Of a stretch of 58,743 nt of DNA, positions 3,892 to 50,433 are shown piece by piece. Positions within the stretch are counted from its first letter, which is position 1. Every line of letters begins with the position of its first letter. A program made the translations under genes and the position numbers. Source of the stretch: an uncultured Bacilli bacterium (lineage in GTDB: Bacteria > Bacillota_I > Bacilli_A > RF39 > UBA660). Under the pieces are notes generated by a model. The model was not told where the DNA came from. It did no database searches and was given only the letters and a program-made list of their open reading frames with translations. Location of the stretch: contig CANRDV010000001.1 of assembly GCA_947629475.1 (NCBI GenBank), forward strand, positions 1-58,743, given 5' to 3'.

Positions 3892-4602
3892 ATGGTTAAA
3901 GATATCTTAATGATGGCTTTGAAAGGTAGTATTGCAGTTGTTTATTTATTTTTAGTAGTTAAGATTTTAGGTAAAAAACAGATAAGCGAACTTAATATAT
4001 TTGATTATATCATAGGACTTTCCCTTGGTAATATTGCAGCTGAGATGACAGTTAACAAGAGTATTCCTATTTTAGGGGGACTTATATCCATGACTGTTTA
4101 TGGTTTATTTTCTTTATTAGTTTCTTATTTAAATGAGAAAAGTATTATATCAAGAAGATTTATAACTGGGTTTCCGATTGTGATTATTAAAGATGGTAAG
4201 ATAAGTCGTGAACAATTAAAAAGATGCAAGATAGATGTTAATGACTTACTTCAAGATGCAAGAGAATCAGGTTACTTTGATATATCTGAGATTAACTATG
4301 CCGTGATGGAACCAAGTGGTAAAGTAAGTTTCTTACCAAAAGCGAAATATACGCCGGCAACTCCATCGGATTTAAAATTAAAAGTAAGTGAAAAAACATT
4401 ATCTTATAATTTAATAATCGATGGAGTAATTATCAAAGATTCTTTAAAAGCTGTTAAACATGATGAATCTTGGCTTCGGACTAGACTTGATAAAGAGGGC
4501 TATCAAGATATATCTAATTTATTATTAGTAACCATTGATAATAAAGAAAAACTAACAATTTATAAAAGTGATGAGAAATTTAATAATGATGTTTTAGAAT
4601 AG
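3892..4602 (+). CDS. DUF421/YetF-like membrane protein
   Basis: ORF 3865..4602 with two or three N-terminal TM helices and a soluble C-terminal half typical of YetF-like proteins. Start moved to the ATG at codon 10. Confidence 0.5.
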   Translation: MVKDILMMALKGSIAVVYLFLVVKILGKKQISELNIFDYIIGLSLGNIAAEMTVNKSIPILGGLISMTVYGLFSLLVSYLNEKSIISRRFITGFPIVIIKDGKISREQLKRCKIDVNDLLQDARESGYFDISEINYAVMEPSGKVSFLPKAKYTPATPSDLKLKVSEKTLSYNLIIDGVIIKDSLKAVKHDESWLRTRLDKEGYQDISNLLLVTIDNKEKLTIYKSDEKFNNDVLE

Positions 4603-34023: not shown

Positions 34024-34866
34024 TCAACTTTTGAATTTTTGAATACGAAATCGACAATTTTTACACATATTACATAAAATTTTATTATTTAGAAAACCAT
34101 TATGTATTTCTAAGAATTTATTACTCTTTAAAATATATTCTAAATCATTATCAAAAATGTTACCTAATTTTAAAATACCACTTGAATCTAAGCAACAAGG
34201 GACAACATCACCATTAGCAAGAATTGCTATATGACTTCGAGTACCAAGACAAGTACCTTGAACTTCTTTGTTATTTATACTATCAGTAGGCCATTCAAAG
34301 TAATTATCTTTATCTAAGTATAAATTATTAGTAATTTTAATATTTTTATTTTTTATAACTTCTTCCTTAAAACTATTATCTAAATTATAGTAATCAATAA
34401 TTTTATCCACAATCATGGTGGATAAAATATCTAAAGTTAAATTATCAAGTAACCAAATACGATAAATAATGGGGAAAAAATTTTTTAATTCATTAGAAGT
34501 TTCAAATACTTCATCAAAATAGTTTTTCTTATTATTCTCAGAATGTAAAGAAATATTTAATTGTTTAATACAATTATGTCTCTTTAAAATATCTTTCTTT
34601 TCTTTTAAAAGAGTACCATTAGTTGTTATTTTAACTTTCATTTTATAGTTATCACATATTGTAAGTAACTTACCTAAGTTAGAATAAAGTAAGGGTTCTC
34701 CTTTAACATGTAAATAAATTGATTTAGTATAATCTTTAATTTTATCTAAAACAATTTTAAAGTTATCTAGAGACATTTCTTCTTTAATTCTTTTATCTTT
34801 ACTACAAAAAGAACAATTTAAATTACAAATATTAGTAATTTCTACATAAATCTTGGTAAATTTCAT
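34024..34866 (-). CDS. Radical SAM protein with SPASM-like C-terminal Cys cluster
   Basis: CNLNCSFC (CxxxCxxC) near the N-terminus. C-terminal CCLD..C..C..C cluster. ATGA overlap with the uvrB stop. Confidence 0.8.
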
Positions 34867-36818
34867 TCTTCTGCCTTCATTTCAAATAAAATATCTCTTA
34901 GTTCCATAGCCCGTTCAAAGTCAAGATTTTTAGCTGCTTCTTTCATTTCGTTTTCAAGTCTTACAATCATATCCATTTTTTCTTTCTTAGACATTTTTGT
35001 TTTTTCTTTCTTTTCGCTTCTTGTATCTAAGTTAGATATTAAATCCCTTATTTCTTTGATAATTGTCTTAGGTGTAATTCCATGTTCAAGATTATATTTT
35101 TCTTGAATTTCTCGTCTTCTTTTGGTTTCTGTTATCGCATAGTCCATACTATCAGTCATCTTATCAGCATATAAAATAACATGACCATTTGCATTTCTGG
35201 CACATCTTCCAATTGTTTGGATTAAACTTCTTTCACTTCTTAAGAACCCTTCTTTATCAGCATCAAGAATTGCAATTAAACTAACCTCAGGAATATCAAG
35301 TCCTTCTCTTAAAAGATTGATACCAACTAAAACATCATAGTTACCAAGTCTTAAATCTCTTATTATTTTCATTCTTTCTAATGTTTTAATTTCTGAGTGT
35401 AAATAAGCAACTTTTATATCTAATTGTTTTAAATAATTAGTTAATTCCTCAGCCATTCTGATTGTTAAAGTTGTAACTAAAACTCTTTCATTATTGGAAA
35501 TTCTTGTGTTTATTTCTCCAACTAAGTCATCGATTTGACCTTTTGTTTTACGGACTTCGATGGTTGGGTCTAATAGTCCGGTTGGTCTTATGATTTGTTC
35601 TATGAATTTACCATTAGTAAGTCCTAGTTCATAGTCACCAGGAGTTGCTGAGACATAGATTACTTGATTAAGTTTGGCTTCAAACTCGGGAAATTTTAAA
35701 GGTCTATTATCAAGGGCACTTGGAAGACGGAACCCATAGTCAACTAGATTTAGTTTTCTAGCTCTATCACCATTATACATACCTCTTACTTGAGGAATTG
35801 TTACATGGGATTCATCAATTACAAGTAAAAAGTCTTTCTTAAAGAAATCAAGTAAACAAGTAGGAGTTGCTCCCGCGGGCTTTAAAGCAAGATGTCTCGA
35901 GTAATTTTCAATTCCATGACAAAATCCAGTTTCTTCAAGCATTTCCATATCATAGTTCGTTCTTTCTCTTATTCTTTCAGCTTCAAGTGGCTTATTATTT
36001 TGATTAAAGTATTCAATTCTGTCTTGTAACTCATCCTTAATATTTTTAATTGCAAGTTTTAAAGTTTCATCATTTGTTACAAAGTGACTAGCTGGGAATA
36101 AAGTAACACTTTTTTTATTATTAAGAATTGCTCCCGTTAAAACATCAATTTCACTTATTCTATCAATCTCGTCTCCAAAAAATTCAACTCTAATTCCATG
36201 TTCATGTTCATTTGATGGAATTATTTCTAAAGTATCTCCTCTTACTCTAAAGGTTCCTCTTTTAAAATCAAATTCATTTCTTTCATATAACATATCAACT
36301 AATTTTAACATTATATTATTTCTATCAACATTGTCACCTACTTTTAAAGTTAAAGTTTTATTTTTATACTCGGAAACTTCTCCAATTCCATAGATGCAAG
36401 AAACACTTGCAACAACTATTACATCATTACGAGAAAGTAGAGCACTTGTTGCAGAATGTCTGAGTTCATCAATTTCATCATTTATCTGAGCATCTTTTTC
36501 TATATAAGTATCACTTGATGGAACATAGGCTTCAGGTTGATAATAATCATAATAAGATACAAAATATTCAACACGGTTATTCGGAAATAATTCTTTTAAT
36601 TCCGAATAAAGTTGTCCTGCTAACGTCTTATTATGAGCAAGAACTAAAGTTTGTTTATTAACATTTTTAATAACATTTGCAATTGTAAAAGTTTTACCAG
36701 TTCCCGTTGCTCCAAGTAATACCTGGTGTTTAACTCCATTTAAAACTCCATCTGTAAGTTCTTTAATAGCATTAGGTTGGTCTCCATTTGGAGTATAATT
36801 AGATACTAATTCAAACAT
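34863..36818 (-). CDS. uvrB: Excinuclease ABC subunit B
   Basis: GATGTGKT Walker A, DESH box, QTIGRCARN motif VI, and C-terminal UVR domain. Confidence 0.95.
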
Positions 36819-36916
36819 AACTTTCTCCTTTCTAGTTTGGGTAAAGTCTTAAATAATTAAAATTTAAACTTACTGGTTCCACATGTGGAACCAAGTCATA
36901 TGTACTTAATCAAATT
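36644..36916. repeat. Repeat R2, copy a: uvrB 5' end plus upstream region
   Basis: Re-occurs at 38539..38801 with substitutions and small indels. Confidence 0.85.
36874..36893. promoter_or_regulatory. Perfect 20-bp palindrome upstream of uvrB
   Basis: TGGTTCCACATGTGGAACCA, 56-75 nt upstream of the uvrB ATG. Confidence 0.4.
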
Positions 36917-36972
36917 ACTAATTATTATACTATAATGTAATAATTAAATAAATACTTTTTAATAATTTAACT

Positions 36973-36996
36973 AAAAAAATCACTTTCGTGACTTTT
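36973..36996 (-). terminator. Rho-independent terminator of the transglutaminase-like gene
   Basis: On the minus strand: AAAGTCAC-GAAA-GTGATTTT followed by a T run. Confidence 0.6.
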
Positions 36997-37011
36997 AAAC
37001 TTATTTTAAAT

Positions 37012-38139
37012 TTAGTACTTTCTTGCAATAGTTTCATCTAAACTTTCTCTAATTACAATATTATATTTTCCTCTTCTAGCCTCTATTTCTATTTTGTTGG
37101 CTTCTTCTAATTCACGTTTTAAAAATCCGTTTGGAATTTTCTTATTTGTAATTTGATATTTGCCTTTAGCACCTTCTATAGTTTGATAATCTTGTGTTAA
37201 AGGAAAAAATGCATATTGATAATCTTGCTCTTCACCAACATAAGTTTGATCATATAAAAACCATGATTCAGATTCTCTTATTTGTAATAAATTCCAAGCA
37301 TGTCCGTAAGGTATTCCATCATCAATGATTGAACCACCAAGTAAACGACAATCAATTTTCATATAAGGATTATTTAATAGCATCATAAAAGCCTCGGCTT
37401 GACCCTCACATACTCCTTCACCATTTTTTAAAGTATCATTTGCAAAATGATATCCTAATTTTTTATTTATATCATTTGGAAAAGCTATATGTTTAGATAA
37501 ATATTGACTAACAAGTAATACTTTTTGAAAATCAGGGTGTATGCCTTTGAGTTTTAAGGTTGAATTAAGAATTTGAAGAAGTGTACGTTTTAATTTTAAA
37601 GCATCACGAAGATTATAAAAATTACCTATGAAACCTTTATTCATCCTTTCACTATATTTTATTCTTCCATCAGTATCACTGCAATCTCTTCTATCGAATC
37701 TAATAAATCTAGAATCTGCATTTTCAATTTCGTTATGCCACATTAAATACTGTAATGGAATAATAGTTATACAATTTAAGTTCTTTAAATCAAGTGATGT
37801 TCTATCTTTTAAAAGCATATCAGGAAACAATTTAATTACTTTTTGGTTAGCATTTATAAGAGAAGCAATTCTTTTGGCATTTTCAAAGTAATGCTCATCT
37901 TCAACATTTATGTGTAACTCCATATTAGGATAGTCCCTAAATATTTTATTTAAATATTCTATTGTTTTTATATCATCTGCTTCTTCTTTTGAAGTATCAA
38001 CTAAAAGTCTCAAAGATATAGGATGCTTTGGTAGAATTATCATTCTTCTTTTAGTTAATTCACGATAACTTATGGTTATACAATTGGGATATTCTTTTCT
38101 TACATTTTCATAATTACTTATAAATCTAATTTCACGCAT
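37012..38139 (-). CDS. Transglutaminase-like cysteine protease fold protein (hotspot cargo 1)
   Basis: Cys-His-Asp core pattern: GEGVCEGQAEAF ... YGHAWNLL ... FLYDQTY. Start moved to the ATG (MREIRF) after the GGAGA RBS. Confidence 0.6.
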   Translation of the reverse strand: MREIRFISNYENVRKEYPNCITISYRELTKRRMIILPKHPISLRLLVDTSKEEADDIKTIEYLNKIFRDYPNMELHINVEDEHYFENAKRIASLINANQKVIKLFPDMLLKDRTSLDLKNLNCITIIPLQYLMWHNEIENADSRFIRFDRRDCSDTDGRIKYSERMNKGFIGNFYNLRDALKLKRTLLQILNSTLKLKGIHPDFQKVLLVSQYLSKHIAFPNDINKKLGYHFANDTLKNGEGVCEGQAEAFMMLLNNPYMKIDCRLLGGSIIDDGIPYGHAWNLLQIRESESWFLYDQTYVGEEQDYQYAFFPLTQDYQTIEGAKGKYQITNKKIPNGFLKRELEEANKIEIEARRGKYNIVIRESLDETIARKY

Positions 38140-38214
38140 TTTATCTCCTTTTTCTATAAATAAATTATATATTATAAATTTATATATTACAAGATATTGA
38201 TTATTTAAATATAT

Positions 38215-38339
38215 CAAAGAGGACTTAAATTAAGTCCTCTTGGTAGCAGCCTGACAATGTCAAGCAAAATAACCTTCTATTTTTCGGAACATATTAATAT
38301 GACTGCCGAAGCTAGGCTGGGGCTACCATCTCCCGTTCG
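38215..38339 (-). ncRNA. Candidate about 125-nt structured RNA, copy A
   Basis: Minus-strand promoter TTGATA-17-TATAAT (38374..38346). Closing helix GGTAGC..AGCCT / AGGCT..GCTACC. Terminator AAGAGGACTTAA/TTAAGTCCTCTT. Confidence 0.4.
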
Positions 38340-38540
38340 TATATAATTATATACTATTTTAAACGAATTATCAATGGATTATGCTAAAATATTCCAAGTA
38401 TTTCATCATCTTTAACATCAATGTTTAGATAATTAGCATTATTAGATAAACCTGGCATTCTAACAACCCCTCCCATTAATATGGTTATAAATCCGGCTCC
38501 ATTATTGATTTTATAACCTGTAACCGTCATTGTAAAATCT
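38216..38540. repeat. Repeat R1, copy a (325 bp): small RNA locus plus fhs 3' end
   Basis: Collinear with 44677..45001, no indels, and about 14 mismatches by eye. Confidence 0.9.
38384..38540 (-). pseudogene. 3'-terminal fragment of fhs (last about 51 codons plus stop)
   Basis: Near-identical to 44845..45001 and lacks the rest of the gene. Joined to a uvrB fragment at 38539/38540. Confidence 0.9.
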
Positions 38541-38712
38541 AAAGTTTGTTTATTAACATTTTTTATAACATTAAAAATTGTAAAAGTCTTACCAGTTTCG
38601 GTTGCTCCAAGTAAAACTTGATGTTTAACTCCCTTTAAAACTTCATCTGTAAATTCTTTAATAGCATTAGGTTTGGCTCCATTTGGAGTAAATTAGATAC
38701 TAATTCAAACAT
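38539..38712 (-). pseudogene. 5'-terminal fragment of uvrB (about 57 codons), frameshifted
   Basis: Matches uvrB 36644..36818, including the GTGKT-encoding stretch. A 1-nt deletion sits near codon 8 (GAGTAAATT versus GAGTATAATT). Confidence 0.9.
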
Positions 38713-38756
38713 AACTTTCTCCTTCCTATTTAGGATTAAATATTAGATTTATTTTA

Positions 38757-38779
38757 TTGGTTACACAGTGTGTAACCAA
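38757..38779. promoter_or_regulatory. Variant palindrome in the duplicated uvrB upstream region
   Basis: TTGGTTACACA-G-TGTGTAACCAA. Both arms are changed symmetrically relative to the copy at 36874. Confidence 0.4.
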
Positions 38780-38819
38780 GTCATATGTGCTTAATCAAAT
38801 TCTTTTAAAAATTGTCTAA

Positions 38820-41704
38820 TTAATCTTCAATATTTTTAATACTATTTAATATTTCAATATTAGCATCAATAGGATCGGATTCTTTAGATATATCAACTTC
38901 TTTATCTTTTTTAGTTACTAAGATGCTTTCTATATCATTTTTATTATATACTTTAACAGCATTAATCATCTTTGAAGTTATATTTTCTATTTGTCTTTCA
39001 TCTATAGTATTTTTCATATATAAAAATGTTATTCTAACACCTTTAGATTTGTCGTCATCTTTATATTCACGATAAGTTTTACTAAAATATCTATCAATTC
39101 TTCCAATTCTTTGTTCCATATCACCAGGAGTCCAAGCAATTCCATAATGAATAATATGAGAACAATTTCTTTGTAAATCAATTCCTTCTTTAACAATATC
39201 AGTTGCAATCATAATATCAGGATAAAAACTTGTATTAAACCAAATACTTTTATTATAAACATTATCTCCATCATTATTACTTGAACAACCAACTATACTA
39301 TCTCTACAAAATTGTCTTTTATTTAATATATCTTGAATTTTTTTATCATCTAATTCATTATCATTCTTATAAAAATTACTATAACCTAAATGATTAAGAA
39401 GAGCATCAATATCTGGAACTTCATTATCATCAGAAGTAAAAGATTTAAAAAAATCTTGAACTCGATTATAAATCCTTTTCCAAAAATTCTTATTCTTATT
39501 TTTAACTATTTCTTTTAAGATATCTCTATAATTTATATCTTTTTTATCTTTCTCTAGTTTACAAACTAAGGCAATAAAATATAAAATACTTTCACTATTA
39601 ATAATATTACTTTTAATAATATCTTTAATAAACTCTCTTTTTAAAAACATTTCTTTTTCAAATTTAATATTTTCATTATTATACATTAATTGATTTAAAT
39701 TAAAGTATTCTTTATCCCATATAGAAGGATTATTTTTAAATAAAGTTTGTAAGTCAAATAAATCAATATTAAAATCCTTATTATGCTTTACTTCTTTACC
39801 AAAATAGAAAGATTCATATTCTTTAGGTATATATTCCCAAATTTTTCCATCCTTTGCTAATTTTTCCAATAATATTAAATTTACAACTCTTTTTCTTGTT
39901 AATCTCTTTAATTTTTTATCAGATATACTAACATCTTTATTTTTTAATTTTTCTTTTATTTCTGAGACTGTAATAGAATACTTACCTTTCTCTTTAAATT
40001 CAACTTCTAATTTATCTTCATTCTTGTTATAATTAATATCTTTAATATTAAACCCTAATAGTTTAAAATAATCTTCTTCAAATAATTCATCAAATTTATT
40101 ATAATTTAGAAATCTCTTTTTATAATTAGGTAAAATAGTGTTATTAGTAGGTTTAACTCTCAGTTCTTTTAACCATGAAGATTCATATGGTTCATTTTTT
40201 TTCTTATCATCATCTCCATAGTAATTATTTTCTAAAGAATCATCAGAAATTTCCTCATCTTCCTTATCATTTTTACCTAATAATTCATTTTCAAATTTTT
40301 CAATTGCTTTTTTTGGATCATCATCTTTAATATTAATAATTTCATCAATTAAGTCTGTTAAAGTATTATCATAATCATCAACTAAAACCTTTTCAATATC
40401 TTTAATAGTACTTTTAATTCTAACAAATATTAAAGTTTTATCTATTTTAGTATTATCATGATTTTTTTCAGAAATTATATCTTTAATTGCTCTAGGTTTT
40501 GGATGTGATAAAATATCATTTGCTTTATTCTTAAATTTGTTTTCTAAATCTTCTTTAAAATAATCAATTAGATAAGTATCAATTTTATCTTTACTATCAG
40601 GACTAAGTTCATCTTCATTAGGAATTTCATCTTTATTATTATTTAAGGTATCTTTATAAAAACGTTCAAATCCATCAAGAGAACCAATTCTAAAAATATA
40701 ACCATTTTGAGCAATTTCATTTTTTTGAATTAAAGCCATAGTTAAACCTTCATGAAACGTCATTTCTGATTCTGTAGTTTCATATTCACGATAATAAAAC
40801 TTACTGTGATTATTATAGATTCTATTTCTTTTAATAATATTTATATAATTATTTAGATTCTTTTTTGTTAAATCTTCTTTCTTATTAAGAATATTAATCT
40901 TTTTCTCTTTCTTAATTACAAAAGACATTTGATTAAAAACATCTTTTTCTGAATTATGATAAGGAGTAGCTGTTAGAAATAAAGTTTTTTTAAACTTCAT
41001 TTTATCATTATCAGATTCATTATTTTTATAATATAATCCAAAGAAAGCAGAAAAACATTCAGCTTTTTTAGAATCAGTTTTTCTTATATTTTGAGATTCA
41101 TCAATTATAACTAAATCAAATTCAGGTAATTCATTATTTAGTTTAAGTAATTCATTACATAAAGCCCTTAGATAGTTATCATATTCTTTAGAATTATTTT
41201 TATCATAACTTGGTAATTTAACATTAAGACCTATTTTACTAAAATTATTCTCACTTATAAAACTAAAACTATTTATTCTTATAATAGAGATTACATGTTT
41301 ATTTTTAAATTCATTTTTAAGTTCAATTAATTTTAAAGGATTATTAATTAAATCTTCATTATAATCATTATAGAGAATAACATCATCAATACTTTTTTTA
41401 AACAATTATTAGTAAACTTTCTATATTCTTTATCTATCCATTTTTTAGCAACATAATAATTAGGAGCAATTATTAAAATATTACTTTTTTGTTTCTTATT
41501 TATAATATTTCTATAAAAAGCTAATCCTAATCCTTCATAAGTTTTACCTAAACCAACATCATCAGCAATCATAAGAGTCTTATTAGATTCTAAAATACGA
41601 TTAGCCATTAAAATACCTTCTTCTTGAATCTTAGCCATATCGTTATTACCTAAATCAATATATTTTCTAAAGTCTTCTATATCATTCTCTTTTATTGTTT
41701 TCAT
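38820..41704 (-). CDS. SNF2/SF2-family helicase (about 960 aa if fused), interrupted by a frame change in an A7 run
   Basis: ORFs 41348..41710 and 38820..41405. Motif I ADDVGLGKT, Ia IIAPNYY, II VIIDESQ, III LTATP, IV TLIFVR, V IATDIVKEGIDLQ, VI GDMEQRIGRIDR. GGAGG RBS before the ATG at 41704. Confidence 0.75.
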
Positions 41705-43406
41705 AGTCAACCTCCAGATTATCCAAATAAATATCTAATAATTCTTTGGCTTTTTTTTCTTTTAACTTAAATTCATCTTTAAGTTTTGAAATAGCTTCTT
41801 TTTTTAATTCCTCAAATACTTTATTAAATTCATCATACTTAATAATATATTTATTTAAGATAATTTCAATTTCTTTAGCAGTTAATAAAAAGTATAATAA
41901 ATTTTTATCTTCAAAATTATTCTTATATTCCGAAACAAAAGAATCTGTAAAATTATCAAATTTTCTATCATAAATAGTTAAAGGTTTATTCTCTTCTTTT
42001 TTTAAATTTTCAGTTATTTTATTATAAGTAACATATATATTAGCAATATCATATTTATCTTTTTCATAACTCTTTTTAGAATCAGTTTCCTTTTCTTCGT
42101 AAGTTTCTAGTCGAAGTTTATGTTTATTAGTTTTAACAAATTCTAAAAAATCGAAATAATTGGCAGTTATAGTTAATATATTAAAATTATCAGGAAGATT
42201 TTTAATATAGAAAGTTCCATAGGCTTTATATTTATTGTCTATTTCAAGACAAAAAAATCTGTTTAATAATATCTGATTAAAAATATCATCATTTAAGTTA
42301 CAACTAAATTTATTAGATTCATTTTTAGTTAAAGTTAATTCATAAGTCAAAAGTTTTACATTTTGATAATTTTTTTCTAAAGTAATTGTAACTTCATTTG
42401 TATTATAATCTAATATAGCATCTTCAATTTTAATTGTAGAACTATCCTTATCTTCATCTTCCGTTTCAACATTTTCCTGATATTCATATTCTGTTTTATT
42501 TTTATATAATTCTTTAAACCAATTCTTAAAGTTTTCTATTGTTTTAGTATCTTTTATAATTAAAGATGCTTCAACGTTTTTATTATTTATAGCTTTATTA
42601 GTAAAATTATGAGAACCAACTATTACTTTATCATCCATAATATAAACTTTAGCATGAATAAATTCTTTATCATTATTAAGAACAAATAATTTTTTTAAAG
42701 AGGAATCATATTTATTACCATCACTAAAACCACTTTTACTAGTTAATAAAATTTCCGCATCTTTAAACTTTTCATTTGTAAGCATATCATTAGTTATAAA
42801 AGGAGTGACTATTTTTAAATTATTATTATTAATTTTATCTAAAAAGTTTTTTTCATCATTTAAACCAGTTAGAATTAATTTATCATTTAATTTACCATTA
42901 TTAGCTAAATTTTCAATAATTTGCCATATATCATTAGAATTTTTTATGATTTCTTCAATTATATTTTTTTTATCAATAGTAAGAATACCTAGAACTTCTT
43001 TATTAATACCATAACTACTTGTTGTTAAATTAGCAGATGATACCAATAAAGTTAAAATATCTTTTTTCTTTTTTTTACCTATAATTATAATTAACTTAGG
43101 ATGAAATACCCCATTTGCTTTAACTTGTTTTATTTGGTAATTACCAATTTTTTCATAATCACCTAAATAATTATCACAAAAGACATTTATTTTAGTATTT
43201 TTTTCATGTAGTTTATTAGTAAGAGCCTCAACAATAAAAAATTCTTGATTTCTAATTCCTTTATGAATTTCTATATCAAATAAATAGGGTAGCAATTTTG
43301 TTTCAAAGAAAGGGATATCTAAACTATAAGTTGTAAAAATTAAATTACTTATAGTATCATATTCATCTATTTTTTCTTTAATTTTATCTTTTAATTTTAT
43401 TTCCAT
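41682..43406 (-). CDS. Phospholipase-D superfamily (tandem HKD) nuclease-like protein with about 300-aa unknown C-terminal region
   Basis: HKD-1 FHPKLIIIIG..LLVSSANLT lacks the Asp. HKD-2 IHAKVYIMDDKVIVGSHNFT is canonical HxK(x)4D(x)6GSxN. Overlaps both neighbouring genes. Confidence 0.8.
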   Translation of the reverse strand: MEIKLKDKIKEKIDEYDTISNLIFTTYSLDIPFFETKLLPYLFDIEIHKGIRNQEFFIVEALTNKLHEKNTKINVFCDNYLGDYEKIGNYQIKQVKANGVFHPKLIIIIGKKKKKDILTLLVSSANLTTSSYGINKEVLGILTIDKKNIIEEIIKNSNDIWQIIENLANNGKLNDKLILTGLNDEKNFLDKINNNNLKIVTPFITNDMLTNEKFKDAEILLTSKSGFSDGNKYDSSLKKLFVLNNDKEFIHAKVYIMDDKVIVGSHNFTNKAINNKNVEASLIIKDTKTIENFKNWFKELYKNKTEYEYQENVETEDEDKDSSTIKIEDAILDYNTNEVTITLEKNYQNVKLLTYELTLTKNESNKFSCNLNDDIFNQILLNRFFCLEIDNKYKAYGTFYIKNLPDNFNILTITANYFDFLEFVKTNKHKLRLETYEEKETDSKKSYEKDKYDIANIYVTYNKITENLKKEENKPLTIYDRKFDNFTDSFVSEYKNNFEDKNLLYFLLTAKEIEIILNKYIIKYDEFNKVFEELKKEAISKLKDEFKLKEKKAKELLDIYLDNLEVDYENNKRE

Positions 43407-44563
43407 GAATCCATACTCCTTATAAGACTTTGAACAGCATCAAGATAATATAAATGACTAAATTCTGATTCTGGTTCTATAATATCTCGTTTTGCTGTAT
43501 GAATAATATAATATTTATTATTAATTTTTTTAATCCAAGGATTTGATTTATCTTCTGTTATAATCTTGATATGATCATCTATAAGAGCATGAATTATTTC
43601 AGTATTAGATTTTCTAATATTATCTCTTAAATTAGGATAATAATCTTCTTTAAAGAAAAAATCTAATTTATTTTTATTATAATAATCTTTTAATTCATCA
43701 ACCATTTTATTTAATTCGTTATTATTTTCTAAGTTATTTAAATTATCTTGTTTAAGGAGAGTATAAAAAATATTATTTAAATAAGTTAAAAAAGGTTCTA
43801 ATGCTAAAATATTTTTAATTGTTTCATTTGAGTTATTATTAGAAAAAATTTCTTTTATATTTAAACTATTATCATTTTTTAGAATTTCATAAATATTATT
43901 AAGATATTTTTCTTCTTTACTTATTATTCCTAATGTGTTTAAATATTTCTCTTTTTGATTATCCTTAACTTGTAAAATATTTATTATTGTATTTTTAATA
44001 TCATCTTTTATATCTTTATAGTGTATTACATTATTATTTTTTAAAATATCAAAAAAAGAGTCTATTAATTTTTGTTTATCATAAGAATTATTAAAAGTTA
44101 TATCTAAAATTTTATCTTTTAATTTTTCTGTTTTTGAGTTATATCTTCCTATATAACCTGAACTTTCTTGACCAACTAAAATTTCTTTTTCAGCTGATAT
44201 AATGGGATTATTGTTCTTGGCAGTTGTATAAAGTTTCATTCCGTTATTATCGCCTAAGAATTTTATATTTTTATTTTTTTTAATATTATACTCAACTAAT
44301 ATATATATAATAATCATTTCATATTTTATTTTAATATCGTTTTTTTCTTTGGGTGTAAATGCAATATTATTATATTTTTCTAATTTATCGATTACTTTAA
44401 GTCCAAGTGCAGTTATAATAAATCCTTTTATATCATCAGTTACTGAAGTAATATTAGGATAAAGTTTTCTAGCAAGATTTGACCAAATTGATTGTTGTCT
44501 TAAAGGGTCTCTTTGAATATTTCTTTCAATATCTGTGTCTTTTATAGTTAAAAATGCTTCCAT
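43397..44563 (-). CDS. Hypothetical protein (388 aa), first gene of the PLD-helicase operon
   Basis: AGGAGAA RBS. 10-nt overlap with the PLD gene. No motif recognised. Confidence 0.65.
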   Translation of the reverse strand: MEAFLTIKDTDIERNIQRDPLRQQSIWSNLARKLYPNITSVTDDIKGFIITALGLKVIDKLEKYNNIAFTPKEKNDIKIKYEMIIIYILVEYNIKKNKNIKFLGDNNGMKLYTTAKNNNPIISAEKEILVGQESSGYIGRYNSKTEKLKDKILDITFNNSYDKQKLIDSFFDILKNNNVIHYKDIKDDIKNTIINILQVKDNQKEKYLNTLGIISKEEKYLNNIYEILKNDNSLNIKEIFSNNNSNETIKNILALEPFLTYLNNIFYTLLKQDNLNNLENNNELNKMVDELKDYYNKNKLDFFFKEDYYPNLRDNIRKSNTEIIHALIDDHIKIITEDKSNPWIKKINNKYYIIHTAKRDIIEPESEFSHLYYLDAVQSLIRSMDSWK

Positions 44564-44586
44564 ATTTTTCTCCTATCTTTATAAAT

Positions 44587-44615
44587 ATTTTATCATATTG
44601 TTTATAATAGGTCAA
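44587..44615 (-). promoter_or_regulatory. Sigma-A type promoter of the three-gene operon
   Basis: On the minus strand: TTGACC, 17-nt spacer, TAAAAT, about 25 nt upstream of the RBS. Confidence 0.5.
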
Positions 44616-44619
44616 AAGA

Positions 44620-44642
44620 AAATTAGGATTAGTTCCTAATTT
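44620..44642. promoter_or_regulatory. Inverted repeat abutting the -35 (candidate operator)
   Basis: AAATTAGGA-ttagt-TCCTAATTT, perfect 9-bp arms. Confidence 0.35.
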
Positions 44643-44675
44643 AGTATCATTACTTGAAAACAAATTTATTATATT

Positions 44676-44800
44676 AAAAGAGGACCTAAATTAAGTCCTC
44701 TTGGTAGCAGCCTGACAATCTCAAGCAAAATAACCTTCTATTTTTCGGAACATATTAATATGACCGCCGAAACTAGGCTGGGGCTACCATCTCCCGTTTG
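44676..44800 (-). ncRNA. Candidate about 125-nt structured RNA, copy B, immediately downstream of fhs
   Basis: Promoter TTGATA-17-TATAAT (44835..44807). Closing helix GGUAGC/GCUACC plus AGCCU/AGGCU. Internal hairpin UUUCGG..CCGAAA. Terminator hairpin 44678-44702 followed by a U-tract. Confidence 0.4.
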
Positions 44801-45001
44801 TATATAATTATATACTATATTAAACCAATTATCAATAGATTATGCTAAAATATTCCAAGTATTTCATCATCTTTAACATCAATGTTTAGATAATTAGCAT
44901 TATTAGATAAACCTGGCATTCTAACAACACCACCCATTAATATGGTTATAAATCCAGCTCCATTATTTATTTTATAACCTGTAACAGTCATGGTAAAATC
45001 T
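44677..45001. repeat. Repeat R1, copy b (325 bp)
   Basis: See 38216..38540. Confidence 0.9.
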
Positions 45002-46428
45002 TTTGGATAACCTAAAATATCTTTATTATCAGTAATTGATGCAGGAGTTTTTGAGATACATATTTTATAATGTTGATATTTTTTATCAAGATTTTTTAAT
45101 TCTTTATCAAGATTATCTTTATAAACTACCTTACTTGCACCATAGATATCTTTGGCAAACTTATCAACTTTAGTTAAGATATCATCATTTAGATTATATA
45201 TTTCATATTGTTTAGTATTACCTTTATTAGCAAGTTCTACAACTTTGAGAGCAATTTCTTTAGTACCGCGACTTCCATTTTTATACATATTACTAATTAA
45301 TACTTCAACATTTAAATTATGACAATAATCCTTTAATATATTAATTTCTTCTTTAGTATCACTTTCAAATTTATTTAAGATAACTAAAACATTATCATTA
45401 AACTTTTGCATATTTAAAATATGAAACTTTAAGTTTTCAATTCCTCGAGTTAAGTCGCCATTTCCATGATATTTTAAACTTCTAATGGTTGCATTGATAA
45501 CTACTAAATCAGGGTATAAATTATTTAGGGAACATTTAATATCAAAGAATTTAACAGCACCCATATCACTTCCGAAGCCTGCTTCTGTTATTACATAATC
45601 TGATAAACTTAAAGCAGTCTTGGTGGCAACCACGGAATTACAACCATGAGCAATATTGGCAAAAGGTCCTCCATGAATAATCGCAGGATTATTTTCTAAA
45701 GTTTGAACTAAGTTAGGTTTAAAAGCATCTTTAAGTAAAGCAAGAACAGCACCAGTTCCTTTTAAATCTTTTAAATAGATTTCTTTTCCTTTTGAGTTTC
45801 TTCCTATTAAAATATTGTCTAGTTTATTTCTTAAATCATCAATGTCTTTAGCTAAAGTAAAGATTGCCATGATTTCTGATGCAGCCGTTATGGTAAAGCT
45901 TTCTTTTCTTGTTCCAAGGTCAATATGTCTTAAAGCTCTATCATTTACATCTAAACATCTTTCAAAGTAAACTTCTTCTATATCTAACTTATTTCCTTGA
46001 TAAATATGATTATCAATTATAGCAGAAATTAAATTATTAGCAGATGTAATTGCATGAAAATCTCCTGTAAAATGTAAATTAATATCATTCATTGGAGCAA
46101 CTTGACTTTTTCCTCCTCCAGCAGCCCCGCCCTTTGTTCCAAACACAGGTCCAAGCGATGGTTCTCTTAAAGCAACAACTGCTTTGTATCCATTTCTATT
46201 TAAAGCATCGTTTAACCCAACAGCAAGAGTAGTCTTTCCTTCTCCATAAGGAGTAGGATTAGTAGAGGTTACTAAAATTAACTTACCTTTTTTCTTTTTA
46301 TCTAGTGCTGGAATCTTAGCCATATATTTACCATATGGAATAAGATTATCTTCCTTAATATTAATTTTACTTGCAACTTCTTTAATAGGTTTAAGTTTAG
46401 CCTTTTTACTTATTTCATAATCTGTCAT
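44845..46428 (-). CDS. fhs: Formate--tetrahydrofolate ligase
   Basis: TPYGEGKTT P-loop. EPSLGPVFGTKGGAAGGG motif. Start moved to the ATG after AGGTGG. Confidence 0.95.
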   Translation of the reverse strand: MTDYEISKKAKLKPIKEVASKINIKEDNLIPYGKYMAKIPALDKKKKGKLILVTSTNPTPYGEGKTTLAVGLNDALNRNGYKAVVALREPSLGPVFGTKGGAAGGGKSQVAPMNDINLHFTGDFHAITSANNLISAIIDNHIYQGNKLDIEEVYFERCLDVNDRALRHIDLGTRKESFTITAASEIMAIFTLAKDIDDLRNKLDNILIGRNSKGKEIYLKDLKGTGAVLALLKDAFKPNLVQTLENNPAIIHGGPFANIAHGCNSVVATKTALSLSDYVITEAGFGSDMGAVKFFDIKCSLNNLYPDLVVINATIRSLKYHGNGDLTRGIENLKFHILNMQKFNDNVLVILNKFESDTKEEINILKDYCHNLNVEVLISNMYKNGSRGTKEIALKVVELANKGNTKQYEIYNLNDDILTKVDKFAKDIYGASKVVYKDNLDKELKNLDKKYQHYKICISKTPASITDNKDILGYPKDFTMTVTGYKINNGAGFITILMGGVVRMPGLSNNANYLNIDVKDDEILGIF

Positions 46429-48835: not shown

Positions 48836-50433
48836 GATAGCGTAAAAATGTTTTGGAATTAACTACAAAAGGCGATATTATTAAGTAATAACGAAATTGG
48901 ATTAGAAGAAGATTTAACTGGAATGTTTGAAGAACTTTTTTCAAAAATTGAAAAAGAAACCTCTTGTTCATCGTAAACAAAATTATCTTCTTCTTTTTTA
49001 TTATAAGAAGATAAGTAGAGACTCATAATGTTGACTCCATTGAATTTATCTTCTTGTAATTTAATATAATTTTCAATTCTATTCCTTGAAAACCCCTTAG
49101 GTCTAGAGCCAAAATAGTTAGCCATATAGTGTGAAATATGAGATTCCATTGATGATTTTACATCTCTGTCAGTCATATTTAAAATGGACTTCCAATGCTT
49201 TACAATATAATCTTTGTATTTAGTTTTTTTCTCTTTCTTTTTTTCATCATTAACTTTTTCAATAATTTCATCTGCTAATTTAATGAAACCTTTTTTATCT
49301 TTATCTACATAAATTAACTTATAAAGATTATCTCTATTTTCTTTATTAGAAGTAAATCTATTGATATATAGTTTTACATGAAATTCACAAGTATTAGCAA
49401 TTACTTTATTATTTTTGTTTAATTTCAATTCATCTTTTCCACTTAAAATCCAATTACCACAATCACTTAATAAATATATTTCATCAATTTCTTCAAAGTT
49501 ATATATATTAAATATTTCATCAATAAAACTTTTCCAAGGAGTGTCATTAGAAGTCATAAATATATGTCTGTTTAGTAATTGCTTGCGATTGTTTTTTGTT
49601 ATTGCACCAGTAAAAGTAACAAAACATTTTCCCATAATATAATGATGTTTATCTTTTTCATCATCATTTAGCATCACGTGTCTAATATATTCATGAATCC
49701 ATTTTTCATCAACCATAACATAAAGTCTTTTAACACCTTCGATAGGTTCATATTTAATTTTAGGAATTTTCCACTTATGTATCCAAGTATGGATAGTTTG
49801 CCTAGATACATTTTTAAATTTATTATTATTTAAATAATTAGAATAATCGTTTAAAAGGAGATTAGTTTCATTTGAAGTAATATTGGCATTAGTATTAGTA
49901 GAACTATCAATTAATATTGCTCTTACTAATGGGTCATATGTAGTATATTTCTCAAATTTAAATAATTCATCAATAAAATAAAAACCATTTTTTTTATCTT
50001 TGTCTGTATAATAAATTCTTTCAAAGTCTAAATCACCATAAATAGTAGTAATACTTCTTTTATGAGTATCACATTTATAGAAATTATGTTTTCTATAATC
50101 TGAGCTAAGAAATGCATTATCAATTCTTGGAATTGCTAATTTCATAGTTTCAATTATCATTTTTTTAAACCCGTCGTTTAAACTAATCATGCCTTTAGAA
50201 TATGCATCTTCACCAACATTAAAAAAAATATTTTCAATTAAATCGGGCATCCTCACCTTATTTACTTCAAAAAATGTATTTTTCAAAATATTTATTGCTA
50301 AATTTCTTAATTTTTGTGTTATAATAATCATAGAAAGAACTCCTTTTATTTTTATTTTTTATATATTTATAGGTATATTATACCATGAGTTCTTTCTTTT
50401 TTATAGTTAATTCCAAAACATTTTTACGCTATC
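48836..50433 (-). mobile_element. IS element (ISLre2/UPF0236-like), 1598 bp
   Basis: Perfect 30-bp terminal inverted repeats GATAGCGTAAAAATGTTTTGGAATTAACTA (48836-48865 and 50404-50433). 8-bp direct repeat AAATAATA (48828-48835 and 50434-50441). Confidence 0.85.
48859..50331 (-). CDS. Transposase (490 aa), intact
   Basis: Fills the IS. SDCGNWI and CEFHV motifs parallel SDGATWL and DKYHL of the other IS in this window. Confidence 0.7.
   Translation of the reverse strand: MIIITQKLRNLAINILKNTFFEVNKVRMPDLIENIFFNVGEDAYSKGMISLNDGFKKMIIETMKLAIPRIDNAFLSSDYRKHNFYKCDTHKRSITTIYGDLDFERIYYTDKDKKNGFYFIDELFKFEKYTTYDPLVRAILIDSSTNTNANITSNETNLLLNDYSNYLNNNKFKNVSRQTIHTWIHKWKIPKIKYEPIEGVKRLYVMVDEKWIHEYIRHVMLNDDEKDKHHYIMGKCFVTFTGAITKNNRKQLLNRHIFMTSNDTPWKSFIDEIFNIYNFEEIDEIYLLSDCGNWILSGKDELKLNKNNKVIANTCEFHVKLYINRFTSNKENRDNLYKLIYVDKDKKGFIKLADEIIEKVNDEKKKEKKTKYKDYIVKHWKSILNMTDRDVKSSMESHISHYMANYFGSRPKGFSRNRIENYIKLQEDKFNGVNIMSLYLSSYNKKEEDNFVYDEQEVSFSIFEKSSSNIPVKSSSNPISLLLNNIAFCS

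Follow-up and report, generated by a model that had tools for sequence, protein, structure and literature searches.

Hotspots flanked by core genes, among them the core defence hotspots (cDHS) of Pseudomonas aeruginosa, combine conserved flanks with variable, often defence-related content, include empty alleles, and show signs of recombination in the flanks with no integrase (PMC5635113, PMC10250203). Content gain at hotspots without mobile-element genes has mostly been inferred from recombination statistics of the flanking genes (PMC5635113), and how core defence hotspots gain content has been stated as an open question (PMC10250203). Here we describe such a hotspot, the interval between the housekeeping genes fhs and uvrB of an uncultured rabbit-gut bacterium, in which two unrelated cargos stand in tandem, separated by a scar made of fragments of both flanking genes. 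The locus lies in contig CANRDV010000001.1 of a metagenome-assembled genome (MAG) from NCBI, the whole 58,743 bp of which we call the window. We propose, with a probability of about 0.5, that two alleles of this hotspot were stacked without an integrase, through closure of a donor fragment into a circle and its entry by a single crossover (Campbell insertion).

The fhs-uvrB interval has all of the above features in common with described hotspots; however, their accepted mechanism is scarless allele replacement by double crossover, whereas the alleles here are stacked and a scar is left. It is also a small site, of 0.2-8 kb, and restricted to one narrow clade of uncultured Bacilli. A closer likeness is found in the effector-immunity arrays of the Vibrio cholerae type VI secretion system (T6SS) and the orphan arrays of Rhs and contact-dependent inhibition (CDI) systems (PMC5361080). 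There, as seems to hold in the window, a new module sits beside a conserved upstream gene, the old one is pushed downstream and retained, gene fragments remain as scars, and the copies come from different strains rather than from duplication. The modules of those arrays share a functional logic, in that old immunity genes are retained, whereas the cargos of the window are unrelated and its scar consists of fragments of both housekeeping flanks.

Campbell insertion is known from suicide plasmids and from recircularised linear DNA (PMC3240628). Like the arrangement in the window, its products carry direct repeats on either side of the insert, lose no recipient sequence and contain a single new junction, formed on closure, that shows little homology or none; host recombination functions suffice to make them. 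The differences are that the "plasmid" would here be a chromosomal fragment of a related strain, that the circle is conjectural, and that a divergence of 4-14% separates the crossover partners. Homology-facilitated illegitimate recombination (HFIR), described in Acinetobacter baylyi, Streptococcus pneumoniae and Pseudomonas stutzeri (PMC3240628, PMC5361080), likewise couples a homologous anchor to an illegitimate joint and places foreign genes beside a conserved gene with no mobile-element enzyme. Its products are usually an insertion plus a deletion with 3-10 bp of microhomology at the junction, whereas the window shows no deletion, duplicated homology and 2 nt. The locus shows known recombination routes at work in nature, clearly and in a lineage that has not been studied; it is not a new mechanism, system or kind of element. 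What it offers is the readable scar of one gain at a hotspot without mobile-element genes: a second cargo can be added beside the first by host recombination plus one illegitimate join, with both housekeeping flanks left intact.

Organization of the locus and its repeats

The G+C content of the window is ca. 25%, and every gene between 34.8 and 46.5 kb is on the minus strand. A scan of a genome collection with Fhs identified rabbit-gut MAGs of uncultured ("Tenericutes"-like) Bacilli as its nearest relatives, the closest of which is designated L001. A reading made from the sequence alone (the sequence-only reading) had proposed the order uvrB, R2a, cargo 1, R1a, R2b, cargo 2 and R1b with fhs, where R1 and R2 are direct repeats. 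Genes and repeats both confirm this tandem:

34863-36818, minus strand: uvrB, intact, the right-hand core flank of the hotspot (Pfam UvrB_inter, UvrB, Helicase_C and UVR; 97.7% amino acid identity to L001 over all 651 aa)
36644-36916, minus strand: R2a, nt 1-175 of uvrB plus 98 nt of 5' leader with a palindrome at 36873-36895; aligns with R2b
36917-36970, minus strand: ancestral fhs-uvrB intergenic promoter segment, TATAGTATAAT, on the cargo-1 side only; ca. 91% identical to the empty site of relative L004 and to L001:4127-4191
37012-38139, minus strand: cargo 1, a transglutaminase-like protein of 375 aa (Pfam Transglut_core, E 3.5e-7; 91% amino acid orthologue at the same position in L001)
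38216-38540, minus strand: R1a, comprising an internal small RNA unit (38216-38374, promoter to terminator) and fhs', a 3' fragment of fhs (38384-38540, 157 nt including the stop codon), as aligned with R1b
38539-38540, no strand: the illegitimate fhs'-'uvrB join, from direct comparison of the parental sequences; also found in contigs L014 and L015
38539-38801, minus strand: R2b, a decayed 5' fragment of uvrB ('uvrB, 38539-38712, 174 nt) plus leader with a palindrome at 38757-38780; aligns with R2a
38820-41710, minus strand: cargo 2 gene C, an SNF2-type helicase split into two open reading frames (ORFs; 38820-41405 and 41348-41710; PADLOC PDC-M27C, E 4e-54 and 1.5e-15; Pfam Helicase_C, ResIII and SNF2)
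41682-43406, minus strand: cargo 2 gene B, a PLD-family (HKD) protein (Pfam PLDc_2; PADLOC PDC-M27B, E 1.2e-22)
43397-44563, minus strand: cargo 2 gene A, a 388-aa protein (PADLOC PDC-M27A, E 1.1e-14)
44677-45001, minus strand: R1b, comprising a small RNA unit (44677-44835) and the last 157 nt of the functional fhs, as aligned with R1a
44845-46428, minus strand: fhs (formate-tetrahydrofolate ligase), intact, the left-hand core flank of the hotspot (Pfam FTHFS, E 9e-207; collinear with relatives over 1584 nt)

The R1 copies align in direct orientation over 325 bp, ungapped, with exactly 14 mismatches (95.7% identity), where the sequence-only reading had given about 14 in a collinear 325 bp. Its description of R2 as more diverged and carrying indels also held: R2a and R2b, again in direct orientation, align over ca. 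270 bp at 86-87% identity, with indels that include a 1-nt deletion in the 'uvrB part. Judged from these alignments, repeats of such length and identity are not a chance outcome; the remaining repeat families in the 15.5-kb region are at most 58 nt long and of low identity. Between the parents of fhs' and 'uvrB, microhomology at the junction amounts to 2 nt only (CT on the plus strand, AG on the minus strand), the same value as had been read beforehand. Moving away from the junction, the first mismatch between the repeat copies comes at 10 nt in R1 and at 27 nt in R2. Nothing was lost at the insertion site, both fhs (1584 nt) and uvrB (651 aa) being full length, and on the cargo-1 side collinearity with L001 extends as far as the uvrB promoter segment. 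That ancestral segment is absent from R2b and also occurs within a scar in relative L003, described below.

The possibility that position 38539 marks an assembly chimera was checked against contigs from the European Nucleotide Archive (ENA), two of which cross the junction. L014 (ERZ27249631) corresponds to window positions 45638 to 38464, read in that direction, with one mismatch, and L015 (ERZ27249136) to 44695 to 38413 at 100% identity. Both run from cargo 2 through R2b and the join into 76-127 nt of R1a, where they carry R1a-specific variants, and contigs L018 and L019 match part of R1a followed by cargo 1, R2a and uvrB. Because the junction is reproduced in contigs of other assemblies, an assembler chimera is very unlikely. 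Exact-protein look-ups with UvrB and Fhs returned no additional contigs.

Origin and decay of the repeat copies

The fhs' fragment of R1a differs from the corresponding part of R1b at six positions, all six of which are synonymous third-position changes. Random changes in this fragment would be synonymous in 22% of cases, so that an all-synonymous set has P ~1e-4 if neutral, and comparison with an outgroup places four or five of the six on the R1a side. Because all are synonymous and most lie on that side, we infer that the R1a changes accrued in a working fhs of another lineage and not in a fragment already cut off from the gene. These substitution patterns show that the R1 copies come from two lineages and not from duplication within the genome, and they directly support a foreign origin of one copy. 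R1a and R1b are closest to each other (95.7%); both are 92% identical to L001, and site by site they are equidistant from it (6, 5 and 3 sites). Thus, the donor would have been a close relative, and the comparison leaves either copy as the foreign one. Synonymous divergence is alike in the two repeats, at 6 of 52 codons in R1 and 6 of 58 in R2.

The two halves of the junction differ in their decay. R2b has a 1-nt deletion at codon 8, its own-frame translation stops after 25 aa, and it carries seven nonsynonymous changes, among them D to A in the GDQP motif and G to E in Walker A; six of the seven fall where no functional copy varies. The fhs' half has no disabling lesion. Under equal decay, the chance that all lesions would fall on one side is ~0.01. 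The leader of R2b is nearer to the L003 scar than to R2a, which fits R2b being derived from an older allele or an older scar.

The hotspot in related genomes

In each of five related species fhs precedes uvrB, both genes point the same way, and the content between them differs:

L001, the closest relative (Fhs 96%, UvrB 98%): small RNA, cargo-1 orthologue (91% amino acid identity) and a YhcG/DUF1016 nuclease gene
L002: Na/Ca exchanger, two C5 methylases and an AlwI-like endonuclease (restriction-modification)
L003: AbiEi/AbiEii
L004: 176 bp only, with the fhs terminator, a promoter, the palindrome and the uvrB ribosome-binding site; the empty site
L008: two genes without assigned function

The sequence-only reading had called the interval a cargo-exchange hotspot and named related genomes as the place to see single-cargo alleles. 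Alignment of the interval yielded an empty allele (L004), an allele with the cargo-1 orthologue plus a nuclease (L001), and alleles with other cargos (L002, L003 and L008), which occupy different points of the interval. Neither integrase nor transposase was found in the relatives' cargos (Pfam, cargo ORFs) or in the fhs-uvrB interval of the window (Pfam, PADLOC and NCBIfam, all interval ORFs). A search of the window for tRNA and tmRNA genes returned none and, thus, no integration target of the tRNA type. Comparison of these alleles therefore supports the reading of the fhs-uvrB interval as a cargo-exchange hotspot that operates without an integrase. Among 80 more distant metagenome loci (UvrB identity at most 76%), none has fhs within 10 kb of uvrB and no extra alleles were recovered; across the loci compared, the linkage is clade-specific. 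The 8.4-kb interval of the window had no match in a plasmid collection.

The fhs'-'uvrB junction is not in L001, so it is not ancestral; the idea that the fragments might be an ancestral feature of the locus was examined in this way. A second, different scar is present in L003, where fhs is followed by a leader homologous to the L004 empty site, by a decayed 'uvrB that extends to about nt 285, by AbiE, and by an intact uvrB with a different leader. The lesions of this 'uvrB are a change of the start codon from ATG to ACG and a 96-nt internal deletion. Its breakpoint is unlike that of the window and there is no fhs' piece; thus, insertions that duplicate the uvrB 5' end occurred at least twice in the clade. 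The independent scar suggests that the route recurs at this site.

Some further observations concern the same interval. In L001, the YhcG/DUF1016 PD-(D/E)XK nuclease gene (L001:4202-5236) lies between the old uvrB promoter segment and uvrB, its end overlapping the uvrB start, and marks a third insertion point in the 176-bp ancestral spacer. The palindromes of the two uvrB leaders in the window, CTGGTTCCACATGTGGAACCAAG (36873-36895) and TTGGTTACACAGTGTGTAACCAA (38757-38780), differ in a compensatory manner (C/A paired with G/T), and both the L003 scar and the L004 empty site contain the palindrome too. It does not match the canonical LexA box of the Bacillus type and may serve uvrB as an operator or as a hairpin in the leader. 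Within uvrB, nt 451-600 (~36218-36368) are 98% identical to L001 and L002, as against 87-93% in neighbouring windows of the alignment, and resemble a recombination patch. Sliding-window identity of fhs and uvrB against L001-L008 gave no clear mosaic boundary by which the stacking event could be dated or oriented.

Probable stacking by an illegitimate join and a homologous exchange

It is quite probable that the tandem arose when diverged alleles underwent a single homologous exchange coupled to a single illegitimate join, and within this class we favor the order in which the join came first. On this model, the resident chromosome would have had the arrangement fhs, small RNA, cargo 1 and uvrB, which is kept in the closest relative. 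The donor, a relative diverged by ~4%, would have carried fhs, small RNA, cargo 2 and the leader and 5' end of uvrB. A fragment with one end 157 nt before the fhs stop codon and the other at nt 174 of uvrB, or of what remained of that gene, would have closed on itself by illegitimate end-joining at the 2-nt microhomology, producing the fhs'-'uvrB junction. A single homologous crossover of the RecA type, within the segment of fhs 3' end and small RNA that donor and resident share (R1), would then have brought this circle into the chromosome, leaving fhs and uvrB intact, the homology duplicated as R1a and R1b, and cargo 2 upstream of cargo 1. A crossover in R2 could have served in place of the one in R1. 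The observed topology has the form A-X2-B'/A'-X1-B, in which both flank homologies are duplicated and fhs, uvrB and the L001-type layout of cargo 1 are kept. The circular intermediate, the direction of the event (cargo 2 incoming) and the position of the crossover are inferred. L001 shares cargo 1, so parsimony would make cargo 1 the resident and cargo 2 the newcomer.

Experimental precedent for such a route comes from E. coli, in which 56 of 60 clones arose by a single crossover of recircularised, partly degraded linear DNA, which duplicated 109-950 bp of the homologous locus, whereas true HFIR accounted for the other four and produced deletions (PMC3240628). We favor Campbell insertion because the homology is duplicated with nothing deleted, and because the illegitimate site that HFIR would have to use falls in a 96%-identical stretch that would be expected to pair.

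Several points weigh against this reading. Campbell insertion and HFIR end in identical sequence, so sequence cannot separate them; the Campbell-type single crossover of the sequence-only reading is thus borne out in its topology, but not in its circle. No circular form, donor genome or cargo-2-only allele turned up in the data searched, in which the junction appears solely in integrated form; the species is scarcely represented in public data, with only four members in its fhs cluster. Joining of the circle also presupposes that the bacterium can re-join linear DNA ends. A single event that joined two intact genes leaves a decayed 'uvrB next to an undecayed fhs' unexplained, which hints at more than one event. 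The asymmetry suggests that the donor already carried an older uvrB scar of the L003 type, that there was selection against an expressed UvrB N-terminal peptide, or that R1a underwent gene conversion; R2b keeps a ribosome-binding site and ATG, which bears on the second option, and the 91-nt block that is identical in the R1 copies bears on the third. Finally, the SPAdes k-mer coverage of contigs with cargo 2 (L014, L015 and L017; 4.83-4.85) is ~1.7-fold that of contigs with cargo 1 in the same assemblies (L018 and L019; 2.76-2.83). The population may therefore be heterogeneous, with a sub-population that has cargo 2 only, or the gap may reflect sampling effects at low coverage. The near-equal coverage of the cargo-2 contigs also means that the three ENA assemblies may share reads, which makes their independence weaker. 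As for the fragment of a diverged relative that had been proposed as the source, the two lineages of R1 agree with it; the donor lineage was not found, and it is by parsimony that cargo 2 counts as incoming.

The strongest alternative, a serious one that we nevertheless consider less likely, is that homology acted first, as in HFIR. Linear donor DNA would have paired within fhs upstream of position -157, and its far end, at nt 174 of uvrB, would have been joined illegitimately at -157 of the recipient fhs; a mirror case, with a cargo-1 fragment anchored in uvrB and its fhs-side end joined at nt 174 of uvrB, is possible. This route needs only one homologous and one illegitimate join and no recombinase gene. 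Naturally transformable bacteria provide documented cases of it, and it is the origin proposed for the stacked effector-immunity arrays of V. cholerae and for Rhs orphan arrays (PMC5361080, PMC3240628). It accounts equally well for the L003 scar, and DNA that enters as a single strand does not circularise easily. On the other hand, its usual products delete recipient DNA, whereas 325 bp of homology were duplicated here, the illegitimate site would lie inside a region that should itself pair, and competence of the organism is presupposed. The junction, at 2 nt, falls short of the usual 3-10 bp (PMC3240628). Since three of the four E. coli HFIR clones had no microhomology (PMC3240628), its length is weakly diagnostic.

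Much less credible is a history in which the repeats arose within the genome, by illegitimate sister-strand exchange at the 2 nt that duplicated the segment from the fhs 3' end to the uvrB 5' end, and one cargo was swapped later for foreign DNA through double homologous recombination. Bacteria commonly form tandem duplications whose join points have short homology. Double crossover at flanking core genes is the accepted turnover of hotspots without mobile elements (PMC5635113). This would invoke two rare events where one suffices and leave the decay asymmetry unexplained. Duplication predicts that the repeat sequence next to the junction equals that of the resident copies, whereas mismatches are present as close as 10 nt (R1) and 27 nt (R2) to it. 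The inner crossover would thus be confined to the 9 nt at the end of R1a or the 27 nt at the end of R2b, and we largely rejected the duplication on this ground.

Site-specific accretion, in which cargo 2 would be a decayed island that targeted the fhs 3' end or the small RNA gene, R1a and R1b its attachment repeats and the integrase since lost, has very little probability. Cargo 2 is indeed flanked by direct repeats that include a gene 3' end and a 91-nt identical block, and a homologue of the small RNA is found 0.8 kb from a large serine recombinase gene in a temperate-phage-like contig. The internal boundary, however, joins fragments of two unrelated genes and is not an attachment-site repeat. 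Neither cargo encodes a site-specific recombinase of its own, as would be expected in accretion of cis-mobilizable and integrative and conjugative elements (CIME-ICE type), and all three genes of cargo 2 match one candidate defence system. Nor does the model explain why the island should terminate in the leader and 5' coding fragment of uvrB. Cargos of the relatives sit at different points of the interval, likewise without recombinases, and no related island with an integrase and R1 ends at fhs was found among 13 genome loci, 80 metagenome loci and viral contigs.

An artefact, that is, a chimeric read or a misassembly of co-existing strain alleles fhs-X1-uvrB and fhs-X2-uvrB, might be suspected of a metagenome-assembled contig whose supporting ENA contigs have low coverage (~3-5x), are suspiciously alike in the three cargo-2 cases and differ 1.7-fold between cargos, but it is scarcely tenable, given that a graph assembler joins at shared k-mers and not at a 2-nt overlap, that at least two further assemblies span the junction, one with a single-nucleotide difference elsewhere, that the variants past the junction are those of R1a and not of the R1b allele and are linked to cargo 1, and that R2b is a decayed pseudogene and so not the start of a second strain's working uvrB.

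Stability of the two-cargo state

Once formed by Campbell insertion, the tandem would offer two routes of resolution. Recombination between R1a and R1b could precisely delete 6461 bp, including cargo 2, and restore a single-cargo allele. Recombination between R2a and R2b would usually move the lesions of R2b into uvrB; loss of cargo 1 would thus be disfavored and cargo 1 effectively locked in.

The small RNA unit

The tandem contains two copies of the small RNA gene, which is ~125 nt long. Its promoter is close to the consensus (TTGATA-17-TATAAT), an intrinsic terminator is present, and the RNA folds significantly (z -3.5). In R1a, 11 of 12 promoter positions match and the terminator is present. 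The small RNA of the sequence-only reading is thus upheld as a unit that runs from promoter to terminator, but it belongs to no Rfam family, either at gathering thresholds or in a permissive E-value search; weak matches to AfaR, RsaJ and snoRNA were discarded as noise. Copies are located as follows:

38216-38374, minus strand: window, within R1a
44677-44835, minus strand: window, within R1b
L001:2735-2902: closest relative
L101:~4040-4190, minus strand: temperate-phage-like contig of IMG/VR

L101 was the one true homologue in scans of viral contigs; 11 viral-contig matches to a 16-mer were chance hits in GC-rich contigs. It also encodes an endolysin, the large serine recombinase mentioned above and an ERF recombinase. 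The 5' 37 nt of the RNA, including an unpaired CCCC, are identical in L101, and the inner hairpins differ, in part by compensatory changes. All four copies have a variable gene downstream in the same orientation; in the window the unit stands ahead of each cargo, and a variable gene likewise follows it in the temperate phage from the same AT-rich clade. One might imagine, although we think it improbable, that phages and chromosomes swap defence cargo by way of the unit of promoter, small RNA and terminator, acting as a portable block of homology or as a regulatory leader common to all, that fhs-uvrB is an integrase-free stacking site to which whole alleles are added rather than exchanged, and that the tandem is no dead scar but a reversible two-cargo state resolved by recombination.

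Cargo genes and a neighbouring element

The genes of cargo 2 match those of PDC-M27 A, B and C gene for gene in PADLOC, and they are adjacent and in the same order. Both sets consist of an uncharacterised protein, a PLD/HKD protein and a helicase of the SNF2 type; the similarity is moderate (E 1e-14 to 4e-54), and a frameshift splits the helicase gene. On these hidden Markov model matches, cargo 2 is thus a candidate defence system, PDC-M27 being itself an unvalidated candidate and the helicase gene being split. Of the earlier claim that a defence cargo was gained without an integrase, the second half stands, neither integrase nor transposase being present in the interval, and the first is qualified to that extent. 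The helicase ORFs encode 120 and 861 aa, and a run of seven A lies within their overlap (window 41340-41410). An identical split is found in four further contigs (L014-L017) and may be a genuine pseudogene or a phase-variable tract. Only 14 homologues of the PLD protein were found, the nearest with 60% identity on a 2.5-kb contig, and none pointed to a donor. The 388-aa product of gene A had no match in Pfam or NCBIfam, and a PADLOC search with the transglutaminase-like protein of cargo 1 gave none.

The sole mobile-element-like gene found near the locus is a 490-aa UPF0236 ORF (48859-50331, minus strand), which lies outside the hotspot, 2.4 kb past the 5' end of fhs. We take proteins of the UPF0236 family to be ISLre2-type transposases.

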